From Raphidiopsis brookii D9 (GTDB lineage Bacteria > Cyanobacteriota > Cyanobacteriia > Cyanobacteriales > Nostocaceae), in the NCBI GenBank assembly GCA_000175855.1, contig ACYB01000035.1, positions 420,001 to 452,000 on the forward strand: a stretch of DNA of 32,000 nt. Direction: 5' to 3'. This document shows positions 6,406-12,645 of the stretch, piece by piece (position 1 is the first letter of the stretch; every line of letters begins with the position of its first letter). A program made the position numbers and the translations under genes. The notes below the pieces were generated by a model. The model ran no database searches. It was not told the origin of the DNA and worked only from the letters and a program-made list of their open reading frames with translations.

Positions 6406-9400
6406 TTATCCAATTGGGCTGTTTGGATGTTGAACAAGTTTTTGGAGAATTTCTTGGTAATAACTAAACATAAACTCGATGGCATCATCTGTAAATAGCT
6501 CCCTGCTGTAGAAAACCTTAATTTCCATGGTGGGATTATTTACTGAAGGTGAGGAAACATAAATCTCTAAAGGAATTTCTTCATCCCACAAGCTGCGATC
6601 GCGCTTAATTGATACAAATTCAAAATCCAACATCCGGTTGTGCCAATTTTGCGGAGGTAACATAGTTAGGGATGTAGAGATATTCAGTGGTTGTTTACTG
6701 GTAACAGTGTCAATGACTGTTTGACAAGCAATTTCTTTATTGTTGATTGCTTCCATTAGGGTTTGTTGGACTTGTTGTAGAAGAGTAAGTCCGGTCTCTT
6801 CAGATGAGAAATGAGAGTGCAAAATTACATCTTTGATGAAGCAACCAAGCATTGTTTCAGTTTTCACTGAACTACGATTACCAACTGTTGTGATCACTAA
6901 AATATCGTCTTTCCCACTATAATTAAACAAAAGTATATTCACAGCAGTGAGGATAATCACAAAGATAGTAACTTTTTGCTCCAGGCTGAAGGCTTGAATT
7001 GATCTAACCATACTGACTGGTAAAACTATGGAATAAACAGATGCACTGCTACTCACCTGTGGTGGAATGTTAGAAACATTATGAGATATTGGTGAGGTAT
7101 TGGTTAATTTCTCTACCCAATAAGCCAACTGCTTTTCTATTACCTTTTCATTAAAGCACTGATGTTGCCAGAGGGTAAATCGGCATAATGACCATCCATC
7201 CGTAATGATATGGTGCATGTTTATTGTTAACCAATATTCCTTTTGATTTACTTGCAATAACTTTGTCTTAATCAGAGGAAGTGAACCTAGATCAAAATGA
7301 TGCTCGTATTCCAACGCAGCGAGTCTCTCAGCTTCAGATGTTCTTTTTGTATTAGGCAAGTTTTGTAAGTCTATAATCTCTAGTGGTATAGTCAGAAGTG
7401 GAGTAATTACTTGTACAGGTTGACCTTCTACTAGAGTAAAAGCCGTGCGTAGTATTTCATGACGACGAATTATTTCATTGAAGCTAGACTCCAACACAGT
7501 TGCAGAAAGAGAGCCTGTAAAACGTAAAGTAACAAAGCTATTGTAAGCGTAATTGTCAGGAGCTAATTGCTGTGAATGCCATATAGACTCCTGTGCAAAA
7601 GACAGTGGGATATATGTGTTTCGTACTTGAGGGATAAGAGGTGGTAAGGTGTCAAACGTCATGCTACCTGCACTCTGCTGCTCTACCTCCAGCTGATGAA
7701 CATTGATTACTTGGCTAAGTTGAACTATGGTGGGTGCTTTAAATAGAGAACGCAAGGGAAGTTCGAGGGACAAACTTTCCCGAATTCGAGATATTACAGA
7801 TGTTGCTAATAAAGAATGTCCTCCCAATTCGAAAAAGTTATCATAAATCCCGACTTTTTCCAGACCTAAGACGTTGGCGATAATATGGGCAATGGTTTCT
7901 TCTGTGGGATTTCTGGGAGCTACAAAGACTGTTTGAGGATTGTCTACTATGGGTATAGGTAGGGCGCGACGGTCTATTTTTCCGTTGGGATTCAGGGGAA
8001 AGGCGTTGAGGATAACAAATGCCAAGGGAATCATATATTCGGGCAAACGTTCTTTGAGAAACTGACGCAACTCACTACTGCTAAGGGTTAAACTTTCACT
8101 AACAATATAAGCAGTGAGATACTTATTGCCTGGATTATCTTCGCGGACAATTACTACTACCTGCTTCACTTGGGGATGTTGGGTTAATACTGTCTCAATT
8201 TCTCCTAATTCTATGCGGAATCCACGAATTTTAACTTGGTGGTCGACGCGTCCGATAAATTCAATGTTTCCATCGGGTAAAAAGCGTGCCAAATCCCCTG
8301 TTTTATAAAGTCGATCATTTGCTACAAAAGGATTAGGAAGAAATCGCTCAGATGTCAATTCGGGACGATTTAAGTAACCTATTGCTAAACCTGTACCTCC
8401 AAGGTAGAGTTCTCCAGACACACCTATGGGAACCGGTTGCAGATGGCGATCTAGAATGTAAACTTGGGTATTGGCGATCGCCCGACCAATGGGAACTGTT
8501 TTTGCTTTTGGTTCTATTTGCTGGATATAATAACAGGTAGAAATGGTTGTATTTTCAGTAGGTCCGTAAGCATGCAACAATTTTTGAGGACCATCTACTG
8601 CTAACAAGTGTCTCACCCACCGAGTATCAACAGCTTCACCACCAAATAATAAGTAGTGTAAATGTCGAAATGCCATCGGTACTTGTTGCACCATTTGGTT
8701 AAATAGTGCGGTCGTGATCATCAAGATGGTAATACCCTCATTTTGTAAGCTAGTGGCAAAATCTCGTGGTGATAGTATGGTTTCTCTATCGAAAATTGCT
8801 ACTTTTGCACCATTGAGTAATGCTCCCCAAATTTCACAGGTAGCAACGTCAAAGGAATTATTAGAAACTTGTGCAATTACATCTGTAGGTTGCAAGGTTA
8901 TATAGTCAGTATTGACTACTAATCGCACCACCCCGCAATGAGGAACCATCACACCTTTAGGTTGACCCGTTGACCCTGATGTGTAAATAACATAAGCCAA
9001 ATTATCTGGGGTAGTATCGCAGTTTAAGTTCTGTTGGTTCTTTTGGGCAATGACGGACCAGTCCCGGTCTAAACAAATCTGCTCAACATCAGTCAGTTTT
9101 CCCCCTAGCTGCTGCTCTGTCAAAATCAAAAAGGCTTTTGCATCCTGCAGCATAAATGCCAGGCGATCGCTCGGATAGGTGGGATCTAATGGTAAATAAG
9201 CACCTCCAGCTTTCAGAATCCCTAGCATGGCGATGATGATTTTAGGCGATCGCTCTAAATAAATTCCCACCAAAGTTTGTGCACTAACACCCAGAAACTG
9301 CAAATAGTGAGCTAGTTGATTAGCTCGATTATTTAACTCCCGATAGGTAACTTGTTGATTTTCCCATTGAACAGCGATCGCATTTGGTGTCCTTTCTACT

Positions 9401-12400: not shown

Positions 12401-12645
12401 CCACCCGCTTTGAGGATACCCATAATTCCAATAACTATTTCTATAGAACGTGTTACACAAAGACCTACAAACACCTCTGGTCCGACACCAATTGATTGCA
12501 AATAATGTGCTAGCTGATTGGCTTTACAGTTTAATTCTCCATAGGTCAACTGCTTATTTTCAAAGATTATTGCTACTGCATCAGGCGCTTTTTTTACTTG
12601 CTGCATAAACAGCTCGTTAATAGACTTGTTTTGAGAATATATCAT
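6406..12645 (-). CDS. Bimodular non-ribosomal peptide synthetase, domain order A-T-C-A-T-C (no TE, R or E domain)
   Basis: 2079 aa with an ATG start (cat at 12643-12645). Two sets of adenylation core motifs are present (LAYLIYTSGSTGKPKG / LAYVIYTSGSTGQPKG, FKTGD / YKTGD, PNGKLDR / PNGKIDR). There are two carrier motifs (LGGHSL, twice) and two condensation His motifs (MHHIISDAWS, MHHIITDGWS). Confidence 0.93.
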   Translation of the reverse strand: MIYSQNKSINELFMQQVKKAPDAVAIIFENKQLTYGELNCKANQLAHYLQSIGVGPEVFVGLCVTRSIEIVIGIMGILKAGGAYVPLDPAYPQERLAFMLEDASPKVVLTESQWLEALPVIKATVLCLDAEWEKIEQQSQDSPSCSVTSENLAYLIYTSGSTGKPKGVQMPHASIVNYLQGITNIIPVDNQDIYLHIASFSFTASVRQLFLPLSQGAAIVIATREQTRDPLRLFELIETQEITICDGVPSVWRYGLMALESLDKKYTRAIGESKLKYLIFGGELLPYQLIKKLRNLFQTPPQFFNILGQTESIGNAFYPIPENCDTEQGYVPVGNPLQDMQQVYVLNSQLEPVKNGESGELHIAGGTLARGYLNRAQANAEKFINNPFNPQQKLFKTGDIARHSQDGNLEILGRIDFQANIRGMRVELEEIEAILKLHPSVKEGAISLREDIPGDQRLVAYIVPNTQTLDLAEIRNFIEHKLPDYMIPNAFVLIEKLPVLPNGKLDRNNLPAPNLSATIGNFVAPRNPQEELIANIWAEVLGLEKVGIYDNFLELGGHSLLASLVISRLREALSLELSITILFEAPTIASLSEKVTTFRDDFHPTNSLSVLQPVSRTAESPLSLIQQRFWIVDQMEGANAAYNITRALRLVGSLNLMALQQAVQSIIQRHETLRTSFGISEGKPVQFIAETLPFTLPLVDLQTLTEVAREAELQRLITTEYTEAFDLSQAPLLRVKLIRLESNSHILLVTMHHIISDAWSVAIFFQELSSLYANSPLANLPVQYADYAYWQRQGLQNDVINTQISYWKKQLADAPPITELPTDYPRSTIETFHGSIHRFRLGNHLTNKLKILSQKSGTSLFMTLQAAFVTFLYRYTGQEDIIIGSPITNRNRQALESLIGFFVNTLVLRTRLENNPTFKQLLSQVRQVSLDGYVHQELPFDILVEALQPKRQKNLSPLFQVMFVLQNSPQEKFNLPGLNVTQIELNRPTAGATFDLTLSMQEANLELIGAFEYNANLFDATTIARMVDNFQTLVEAIVTNPDEQVGKLPLLSASQKHQLLVEWNNTQTDYPHQCIHQLFEQQVERTPNAIAVQWENQQVTYRELNNRANQLAHYLQFLGVSAQTLVGIYLERSPKIIIAMLGILKAGGAYLPLDPTYPSDRLAFMLQDAKAFLILTEQQLGGKLTDVEQICLDRDWSVIAQKNQQNLNCDTTPDNLAYVIYTSGSTGQPKGVMVPHCGVVRLVVNTDYITLQPTDVIAQVSNNSFDVATCEIWGALLNGAKVAIFDRETILSPRDFATSLQNEGITILMITTALFNQMVQQVPMAFRHLHYLLFGGEAVDTRWVRHLLAVDGPQKLLHAYGPTENTTISTCYYIQQIEPKAKTVPIGRAIANTQVYILDRHLQPVPIGVSGELYLGGTGLAIGYLNRPELTSERFLPNPFVANDRLYKTGDLARFLPDGNIEFIGRVDHQVKIRGFRIELGEIETVLTQHPQVKQVVVIVREDNPGNKYLTAYIVSESLTLSSSELRQFLKERLPEYMIPLAFVILNAFPLNPNGKIDRRALPIPIVDNPQTVFVAPRNPTEETIAHIIANVLGLEKVGIYDNFFELGGHSLLATSVISRIRESLSLELPLRSLFKAPTIVQLSQVINVHQLEVEQQSAGSMTFDTLPPLIPQVRNTYIPLSFAQESIWHSQQLAPDNYAYNSFVTLRFTGSLSATVLESSFNEIIRRHEILRTAFTLVEGQPVQVITPLLTIPLEIIDLQNLPNTKRTSEAERLAALEYEHHFDLGSLPLIKTKLLQVNQKEYWLTINMHHIITDGWSLCRFTLWQHQCFNEKVIEKQLAYWVEKLTNTSPISHNVSNIPPQVSSSASVYSIVLPVSMVRSIQAFSLEQKVTIFVIILTAVNILLFNYSGKDDILVITTVGNRSSVKTETMLGCFIKDVILHSHFSSEETGLTLLQQVQQTLMEAINNKEIACQTVIDTVTSKQPLNISTSLTMLPPQNWHNRMLDFEFVSIKRDRSLWDEEIPLEIYVSSPSVNNPTMEIKVFYSRELFTDDAIEFMFSYYQEILQKLVQHPNSPIG
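6409..7614 (-). other. Terminal condensation-like domain C2, aa ~1678-2079, shortened and partly degenerate
   Basis: LSFAQESIWH, RHEILRTAF and MHHIITDGWS (Met1810 codon at 7216-7218) are intact. The segment between the His motif and the WQ...LAYW motif is 29 aa versus 52 aa in C1. The C5-equivalent reads MLGCFIKDVILHS rather than IGxFVNTxxxR. Confidence 0.7.
7708..7917 (-). other. Carrier (T/PCP) domain 2, aa ~1577-1646
   Basis: DNFFELGGHSLLATSVISRI. The Ser1611 codon is at 7813-7815. Confidence 0.85.
7960..9423 (-). other. NRPS adenylation domain A2 (canonical amino-acid type), aa ~1075-1562
   Basis: LAYVIYTSGSTGQPKG, SFDVATCE (Asp present), HAYGPTE, YKTGD, GRVDHQVKIRGFRIELGEIE and PNGKIDR. 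Confidence 0.85.
9511..10794 (-). other. Condensation domain C1, aa ~618-1045
   Basis: C1 is SLIQQRFW, C2 is RHETLRTSF, C3 is MHHIISDAWS (His752 codon at 10390-10392) and C5 is LIGFFVNTLVLRT. No epimerisation-type motifs are present. Confidence 0.8.
10861..11073 (-). other. Carrier (T/PCP) domain 1, aa ~525-595
   Basis: DNFLELGGHSLLASLVISRL. The phosphopantetheine-attachment Ser559 codon is at 10969-10971. Confidence 0.85.
11116..12618 (-). other. NRPS adenylation domain A1 (starter, non-canonical), aa ~10-510
   Basis: A3 is LAYLIYTSGSTGKPKG. The A4 region is IASFSFTASVRQ, with Thr203 (codon 12037-12039) where Asp235 normally sits. A5 is NILGQTE (11713-11724) instead of NxYGPTE. A7 is FKTGD, A8 is GRIDFQANIRGMRVELEEIE and A10 is PNGKLDR. 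Confidence 0.8.

Follow-up and report, generated by a model that had tools for sequence, protein, structure and literature searches.

A gene for a nonribosomal peptide synthetase (NRPS) of the cyanobacterium Raphidiopsis brookii D9, and the transporter gene beside it, were analyzed in a window of 32,000 nucleotides (GenBank assembly GCA_000175855.1, contig ACYB01000035.1, positions 420,001 to 452,000 of the forward strand; positions below are those of the window unless another locus is named). Our preferred explanation, held as a whole with moderate confidence, is that the locus is a decaying copy of a conserved, horizontally mobile cyanobacterial three-gene cassette that encodes a membrane oxygenase, an NRPS, and a major facilitator superfamily (MFS) transporter. 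The NRPS of this cassette would start from a substrate that is not an alpha-amino acid and would release its product through a terminal condensation domain. The two-gene look of the D9 window would then be a result of gene decay.

The D9 NRPS (EFA72929.1, 2079 aa) was located from the list of open reading frames (ORFs) and by exact sequence look-up, in which proteins encoded nearby were likewise identical to proteins of Cylindrospermopsis/Raphidiopsis. Pfam searches with the whole protein and with four pieces of it gave the domain order A-T-C-A-T-C, where A is an adenylation, T a carrier, and C a condensation domain. The D9 translation contains the core motifs YTSGSTG(K/Q)PKG and (F/Y)KTGD, as well as GGHSL in both carrier domains. 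With A, T, and C domains in modular order and their core motifs intact, the protein is a modular (type I) NRPS, laid out as follows.

6406..12645, minus strand: NRPS gene (ORF list, Pfam, exact sequence look-up)
11134..12606, minus strand: A1, starter adenylation domain, residues 14-504 (AMP-binding 14-373, AMP-binding_C 430-504)
10867..11052, minus strand: T1, carrier domain, residues 532-593, with GGHSL (Pfam PP-binding)
9466..10791, minus strand: C1, internal condensation domain, residues 619-1060, with HHIISDAWS (Pfam, full profile length)
7978..9411, minus strand: A2, adenylation domain, residues 1079-1556 (AMP-binding 1079-1425, AMP-binding_C 1482-1556)
7705..7896, minus strand: T2, carrier domain, approximately residues 1584-1647, with GGHSL (Pfam PP-binding)
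6409..7614, minus strand: terminal C, condensation domain, approximately residues 1678-2079, with HHIITDGWS (Pfam match in two stretches)

A sequence-only reading of this locus had derived the same order from motifs and had reported no thioesterase (TE), reductase (R), epimerase (E), methyltransferase, or heterocyclization (Cy) domain. The profile scan agrees: no Pfam family of these five kinds matched the NRPS at E<=0.1, and its last 439 residues matched Condensation only, with no PF00975, PF07993, or similar family at that threshold. The claim of a starter A domain with no preceding C domain or fatty acyl-AMP ligase (FAAL) was likewise confirmed, as an NRPS-type A domain comes first and no FAAL or lipoinitiation C-starter domain was found at the N-terminus, although the FAAL insertion itself was not looked at. 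TIGR01733 matched both A domains, and the nearest solved relatives of A1 are the NRPS A domains of LgrA, ApnA, and McyB. NCBIfam matched the NRPS with generic NRPS models only, all far under their equivalog cut-offs.

Orthologues of this NRPS (2095-2170 aa, 66-96% identity, same Pfam content) are spread over Nostocales and Oscillatoriales, in Raphidiopsis/Cylindrospermopsis, Aerosakkonemataceae, Microcoleus, Cronbergia, Calothrix NIES-22, Cylindrospermum PCC 7417, Anabaena azotica, and Nostoc. Exact-protein look-ups of their loci revealed the order FA_hydroxylase-NRPS-MFS, on one strand and with short gaps, in seven of seven undegraded loci: Cylindrospermum PCC 7417, Aerosakkonemataceae, Microcoleus, Anabaena azotica, Raphidiopsis BLCC-F218, Calothrix NIES-22, and Anabaena sp. 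The description of the D9 gene as a compact orphan paired only with an exporter is not supported by this comparison, since the family comprises a third gene and the D9 gene is no singleton. Six of the seven intact cassettes lie in unrelated genomic surroundings. The seventh, that of Raphidiopsis sp. BLCC-F218 (L089), occupies the chromosomal site of the D9 window, with the same downstream genes, and encodes a 323-aa oxygenase with three His boxes, a 2108-aa NRPS, and a 477-aa MFS protein. The oxygenase gene lies directly upstream of the NRPS gene in the cassettes, and its product (236-323 aa) is a PF04116 protein of the membrane di-iron type ("sterol desaturase") with His boxes HxxxH, HxxHH, and HxxHH, for which no solved relative was found by sequence. 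The ornithine-lipid hydroxylase OlsE, which shares PF04116, is its sole NCBIfam match, but at 48 bits against a cut-off of 475 the cassette oxygenase is no OlsE equivalog. A profile scan of genome contigs with the terminal C alignment returned, among the matches listed, no orthologue and only C domains of 30-39% identity; it keyed on the generic C-domain peptides N[MI]HHIITD and ELPVQYAD, and the matches listed came from unrelated phyla.

One branch of the family is on record. Sinha et al. 2014 (BMC Genomics 15:83; PMC3922686) described a cryptic "NRPS1" cluster of Cylindrospermopsis raciborskii CS-509 that consists of an NRPS, a hypothetical protein, MFS_1, and a sterol desaturase. They named the D9 gene, giving 92% similarity between the two NRPSs, and listed the function as unknown; in C. 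raciborskii CS-505 they found a truncated 600-bp NRPS fragment without the MFS gene. By that statement, and by its NRPS, MFS gene, and desaturase remnant, the D9 locus is a member of NRPS1, of which L089 has all three genes intact. The NRPS1 NRPS was given as 4,209 bp with one T domain fewer, and this gene model is probably incomplete. The existence of a cryptic orphan NRPS cluster is therefore already known; the D9 deletion, the desaturase remnant, the A1 code, and the spread beyond Cylindrospermopsis are absent from that report. A literature search for cyanobacterial A-T-C-A-T-C or sterol-desaturase/NRPS/MFS clusters found only Sinha et al. 2014 and fungal systems, and no paper assigning a product to the cassette. 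The sequence-only reading was right that the gene belongs to no characterized pathway; close homologues in a like cassette context do exist, none of them with a known product. In at least one C. raciborskii assembly the NRPS is present in two halves on separate contigs (P0251 and P0252, 1064 and 1033 aa), by an assembly break or a disruption.

Only a fragment of the oxygenase gene is left in D9, just upstream of the NRPS start, and the block that it closes is bracketed by a direct repeat.

12698..12866, minus strand: FA_hydroxylase pseudogene remnant, residues ~158-213 of 323, without a start codon (tblastn, PF04116, blastn)
4622..4721, plus strand: 100-nt direct repeat, left copy; 3' end of the TPR gene at 3925-4719 (repeat search, translation)
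12866..12965, plus strand: 100-nt direct repeat, right copy; orphan 3' end of a TPR gene (repeat search, translation)

With four orthologous oxygenases as queries, tblastn gave a single match of 53-57 aa at 12696-12866 on the minus strand (E 1e-17 to 1e-19), and PF04116 matched the remnant weakly (E 5.6e-4). At the DNA level its 169 bp are 98.8% identical to L089 positions 742-910, which are internal to the intact gene; D9 lacks the 471 nt at the 5' end of the L089 gene and its 3' part. A metagenomic relative (L083, 96% identical) keeps another piece of the oxygenase gene (its positions 9660-9848, residues ~243-305), with no overlap with the D9 piece. Because the two keep different pieces, the losses were independent, with at least two in the lineage, while the NRPS stayed open. 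The two repeat copies are 88% identical and enclose the whole MFS-NRPS-remnant block. The left copy ends the intact TPR gene (…QKYTQLARVDKDFAKISDNRDFQELLK, followed by the stop codon), and the right copy (…QKYTQLARVDKDFAKISDNREFQELL…) lies between the oxygenase remnant and an R3H gene, with the same piece found in L083. The repeat may be the scar of cassette insertion by recombination in a TPR gene, or a substrate for excision.

The second lesion is in the release domain. Alignment to 20 full-length orthologues, DNA alignment to L083, and blastn to L089 showed that the D9 terminal C domain lacks 29 aa, GLLLEELGILYTAFSNGLSSPLPELPVQY, directly after HHIITDGWSL, and that the next two residues, AD in the orthologues, are CR in D9. 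The deletion follows residue 1820, with its junction at 7185/7186, and splits the Pfam match of the domain in two. The deleted allele was seen in D9 only, the remaining 38 of 39 sequences covering the site being intact, and the 20 orthologues show little or no variation in the lost segment (LLLEEL..Y..F..GL.SPL.EL.VQYAD). The DNA at the junction is not a clean excision. Most economically, it is explained by an 86-bp deletion, which alone would give Cys-TGA, after which the frame was regained as TGA mutated to CGA and a T-run became one T shorter; the alternative reading, from the DNA alignment to L083, is 87 bp deleted plus six mismatches. The alignments and an AF2 model indicate that helix alpha4 and the inter-subdomain linker beside the catalytic motif are gone. 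That model, built from a 64-sequence alignment (pLDDT 88.5), retains both lobes of the canonical fold (TM ~0.8 to the C domains of Txo2 and TycC6) but has no helix after the His motif, and its confidence falls to 66 at the junction; an earlier model from an 8-sequence alignment (pLDDT 40) was not used for fold comparison. With a helix and a linker missing next to the catalytic motif, the activity of the modeled domain appears doubtful. With its oxygenase lost and its release domain damaged, the D9 pathway is probably impaired or inactive and the cluster in decay, which fits the truncated copy reported for CS-505.

Several points weigh against this account. The D9 frame is intact across 2079 codons, and its repair at the junction could reflect selection to keep the C-terminal half. 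The ratio of nonsynonymous to synonymous substitution rates (dN/dS) between D9 and L083 is 0.36 overall, which does not obviously mark an end of purifying selection. The D9 genome, sequenced in 2010, was reportedly obtained by 454 pyrosequencing, in which case the homopolymer lengths at the junction are uncertain; by our reading of the junction sequence, a single additional T would cut the protein short about 13 codons beyond it. Finally, the starter substrate, the releasing nucleophile, and the oxygenase substrate proposed below were all deduced from residues and gene context.

The same observations lend themselves to an alternative in which the D9 NRPS still functions, tolerating the 29-aa loss, and D9 makes and exports an un-oxidized form of the family's product in the absence of the oxygenase. 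The open frame, the core motifs retained in both A, both T, and both C domains, the low overall dN/dS, the apparent in-frame repair, the canonical modeled fold, and the intact MFS gene all agree with such an enzyme. Against it, the lost residues are close to invariant and directly follow the catalytic His motif, the oxygenase gene that is always present elsewhere has been destroyed, and decay has gone further in related strains, as in the truncated NRPS of CS-505. In the last 259 residues dN/dS is 0.91 on 11 substitutions, which is suggestive, not decisive, of relaxed selection there, the 91 substitutions between D9 and L083 being too few for a per-domain verdict. We regard a functional D9 enzyme as unlikely, though a serious contender.

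The part of the preferred explanation that concerns the starter derives from A1, whose specificity positions, like those of A2, were taken from motif landmarks. In HMMER alignments with both LgrA A domains, Thr takes the place of Asp235 in A1 (FTASVRQ versus FDISVAE and FDGSALD). The D9 code reads T235 A236 R239 D278 I299 G301 I322 I/G330 G/N331 K517, D9 and all 20 orthologues share the family code T-A-R-D-(I/V)-G-(I/V)-I-G-(N/H)-K, and NILGQTE stands as the A5 motif in place of NxYGPTE. Asp235, the mark of alpha-amino-acid activation, is thus replaced by Thr in 21 of 21 family members, and by Ser or Thr in the stand-alone relatives described below. The absence of Asp235 and the family-wide conservation of the code make an alpha-amino acid an improbable starter. 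A distal carboxylate, or the zwitterionic end of an amino acid, would suit the invariant Arg239/Asp278 pair, and among possible substrates a dicarboxylic acid, or Glu, Asp, or aminoadipate activated at the side-chain carboxyl, would be likeliest. A residue other than Asp at position 235 together with Arg239 fits a domain that binds a distal charged group and activates a carboxyl without an amine next to it. In ACV synthetase, the aminoadipate A domain has the code EPRNIVEFVK, with Arg239 and no Asp235. A1 shares these two features with it, but all the remaining pocket residues differ, and the common ground is the general A-domain fold.

A1 belongs to a distinct clade, without Asp235 and with invariant Arg239/Asp278. 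Its closest relatives outside the family (46-56% identity) are stand-alone cyanobacterial proteins of A-T-TE (~865-907 aa) or A-T (~665 aa) architecture, about 100 of which share a [S/T]-[S/A]-R-D plus GQTE signature with A1; in the relatives it reads S-S-R-D and YGQTET, without Asp235. Four of their loci were examined (L086, L087, L088, and L092, with P0145, P0183, P0229, and P0126), three being Wzx/Wzy/glycosyltransferase/GNVR polysaccharide loci and the fourth lying near sugar-modification genes. A probable role of the stand-alone A-T-TE proteins is to acylate a polysaccharide with some acid. Several of these proteins bear the JGI label "aspartate racemase," and no description of the clade was found. 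A Wzy_C gene (O-antigen ligase/polymerase-like; L091, 3674-4963) is the immediate upstream neighbor of the cassette oxygenase gene in Anabaena sp. (VILD01000001); its position may be coincidental, though it echoes the polysaccharide context of the stand-alone relatives.

A2, in contrast to A1, has the Asp235 (FDVATCEIW) and Lys517 (NGKIDR) of an alpha-amino-acid-activating domain. Its D9 code, DVCMLGATIK, predicts a hydrophobic pocket of aliphatic type. Codes in orthologues include DAWFLGNVVK, DAFFLGVTFK, DAWTIGAVCK, and DASTVAAVCK, which we take to be Leu-, Ile/Val-, Phe-, and Tyr-like. Within Raphidiopsis/Cylindrospermopsis, alleles with 97.8% overall identity have different residues at 3 of 10 code positions. 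The differing pocket codons lie at about 8830-8850 and 8540-8550 (compared with L089, L083, and P0251); D9 and one C. raciborskii carry DVC..I, and BLCC-F218 and L083 carry DAF..F/L. This allele pattern hints at diversification in the second residue or at recombination centered on the pocket.

The two C domains are dissimilar. C1 is canonical and LCL-like, with Txo2, Txo1, and TycC6 as its best solved relatives (E 1e-105 to 1e-93). C1 and the terminal C domain share only 29% identity; the latter has a diverged acceptor-side half and altered C6/C7 motif regions, and its best solved relatives are TycC6 (2e-35) and Txo1 (5e-34), so that its best PDB match has E ~1e-35 versus 1e-105 for C1. Foldseek matched its model best with bacterial elongation C domains, and the C-terminal cyclizing C domain (CT) of fungal TqaA, at E ~9e-6, is far from it. 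On nearest-neighbor evidence the terminal C domain resembles the bacterial LCL-like type, and beyond its own family and a sister group (~50% identity) it retrieved only generic C domains at ~35%. Assignment as an E, dual E/C, or Cy domain was rejected: only TIGR01720 matched, as a sub-threshold fragment (27 bits versus 74.2), and the domain carries HHxxxDG rather than DxxxxD. In the terminal C domain of PCC 7417 (P0059), a 26-aa insertion, SALLPKGDAKGERSSAECKAHAPRTL, follows LGCFINDVILR; Nostoc FACHB-973 (P0079) has a shorter insertion at this spot, and the other orthologues have neither.

A chain that ends in a C domain with HHxxxDG, with no TE or R domain, would be released onto a nucleophile. 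HHxxxDG is invariant in the terminal C domains of the 20 full-length orthologues aligned with D9, and release by this domain, as the sequence-only reading had proposed, is for that reason a reasonable inference for the family, though a questionable one for the damaged D9 copy. Bacterial NRPSs that release onto a free amine by a terminal C domain include rhabdopeptide/xenortide-like synthetases, and VibH-type amide formation follows the same principle. The cassette NRPS resembles these in ending with such a domain and in lacking TE and R, but its terminal C domain has no specific sequence relationship to theirs. The AusA-type pyrazinone synthetases (A-T-C-A-T-R) are likewise dimodular with a starter A domain, and the NCBIfam AusA model is the second-best match of the NRPS. 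This match nevertheless scores 1429 against a cut-off of 2500 and covers model positions 411-1408 only, and the cassette NRPS has no R domain.

Taken together, the preferred pathway would run as follows. A1 would load a non-alpha-amino, probably anionic, carboxylic acid onto T1, and C1 would join it to a Leu-, Ile-, Val-, Phe-, or Tyr-type residue on T2. The terminal C domain would condense the acyl-aminoacyl chain with a nucleophile not tethered to a carrier and so release it, the membrane di-iron oxygenase would oxidize the substrate or the product, and the MFS protein would export the product. We suggest, with low confidence, that the cassette makes an undescribed class of exported metabolites, in which an anionic starter is recruited by a new [S/T]235-x-R239-D278/"GQTE" clade of A domains and the chain is released onto an amine or alcohol by the terminal C domain. 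The other members of this clade would be the stand-alone A-T-TE proteins decorating Wzy-dependent polysaccharides, and an NRPS route to E-64-like warheads would be one possibility; these additions are part of the same tentative suggestion.

Release need not occur on the NRPS if the terminal C domain were an elongation domain acting in trans with a separate A-T or A-T-TE protein, whose TE would release a three-unit chain. Potential partners are abundant in cyanobacteria and include the closest relatives of A1, and the fold of the terminal C domain is canonical, with elongation C domains as its nearest structures. No such partner gene, however, is adjacent in any of the nine loci examined, the window included; the examined stand-alone relatives sit in Wzx/Wzy polysaccharide loci and not beside the cassette; and the acceptor half is strongly diverged from canonical C domains, as the low identity to C1 and the weak PDB match of the domain also reflect. 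We consider a trans partner improbable.

A more specific proposal, and to us a decidedly improbable one, is an E-64- or circinamide-like product, with fumarate or succinate activated by A1, an epoxysuccinyl warhead formed by the oxygenase, Leu, Ile, Phe, or Tyr added by A2, and a polyamine attached by the terminal C domain. The sequence of acid, hydrophobic amino acid, and amine fits A-T-C-A-T-C with a terminal C domain, Arg239 would bind a distal carboxylate, and Leu, Phe, and Tyr codes occur among the orthologues. Circinamide, an E-64 analogue from Anabaena according to a 2025 E-64 study, also counts in favor of the idea. The same study, however, described cyanobacterial clusters (Microcoleus mfa) homologous to an NRPS-independent fungal pathway, in which MfaA makes trans-epoxysuccinate, and this mfa pathway is a different and better-supported candidate for circinamide. 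Neither the window nor the orthologous cassettes contain the Fe/alpha-ketoglutarate epoxidase, ATP-grasp ligase, or amide bond synthetase of the NRPS-independent cp1/mfa route, and no evidence ties FA_hydroxylase enzymes to fumaryl epoxidation.

The sequence-only suggestion of a complete two-gene cluster, NRPS plus pump, with a product of two building blocks such as a diketopiperazine or morpholinone, is very improbable: only these two cluster genes are intact in the window and the domain order is that of fungal diketopiperazine synthetases with CT domains, but a 169-bp piece of a third gene, conserved in intact loci, lies upstream and synteny contradicts the idea; A1 lacks the Asp that binds the alpha-amino group, so that two alpha-amino acids are not expected in the product and head-to-tail diketopiperazine formation is unlikely; and the terminal C domain resembles bacterial LCL-type domains and not the TqaA CT domain.

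The transporter gene follows the NRPS gene on the same strand, as had been stated.

4919..6352, minus strand: MFS transporter, 477 aa (from TTG 6352) or 468 aa (from ATG 6325) (Pfam MFS_1, MFS_3; NCBIfam)

Its product is 77-88% identical to those of the MFS genes located 3' of the NRPS gene in the orthologous loci. The start is ambiguous, being called at the TTG (6352) in L089 and at the ATG (6325) in L083, and homologues begin to align at the ATG. The 53-bp gap to the NRPS gene claimed in the sequence-only reading holds from the TTG start; from the ATG start the gap is 80 bp. The protein matches only the general Pfam families MFS_1 and MFS_3, and its NCBIfam scores are far under cut-off both for the siderophore exporter EntS (57.8 bits versus 324) and for TIGR00900 (193.5 versus 319.6).

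The window holds 39 ORFs of at least 80 aa, of which 25, besides the NRPS and MFS genes, were scanned against Pfam. All 25 are housekeeping genes or unmatched (LdpA, signal peptidase, dihydroorotase, protochlorophyllide reductase, TGT, Dus, CobS, and others), and no phosphopantetheinyl transferase, MbtH-like protein, or intact tailoring enzyme was found among these neighbors. The earlier statement that no such gene is adjacent is accordingly correct for intact genes, but it missed the FA_hydroxylase fragment upstream. A promoter and terminator scan of 4500-13200 gave counts no better than those in shuffled sequence.

The minimal NRPS-plus-pump appearance of the D9 locus, read as a decaying copy of a wider cassette, makes this copy a poor choice for metabolomics or reconstitution and an unrepresentative example of its family. 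The cassette family, on the other hand, is a fair target for genome mining because of its unusual clade of starter A domains: at ~9 kb its heterologous expression is feasible, and it is spread across Nostocales and Oscillatoriales. Its interest lies in a starter A domain of probably non-amino-acid specificity and in a second position that varies even between near-identical alleles. The substrate of A1, once known, would annotate the large stand-alone A-T-TE clade in cyanobacterial polysaccharide loci. The copies in Raphidiopsis/Cylindrospermopsis, which are variously intact, oxygenase-less, deleted, and truncated, form a natural erosion series in a reduced-genome lineage.

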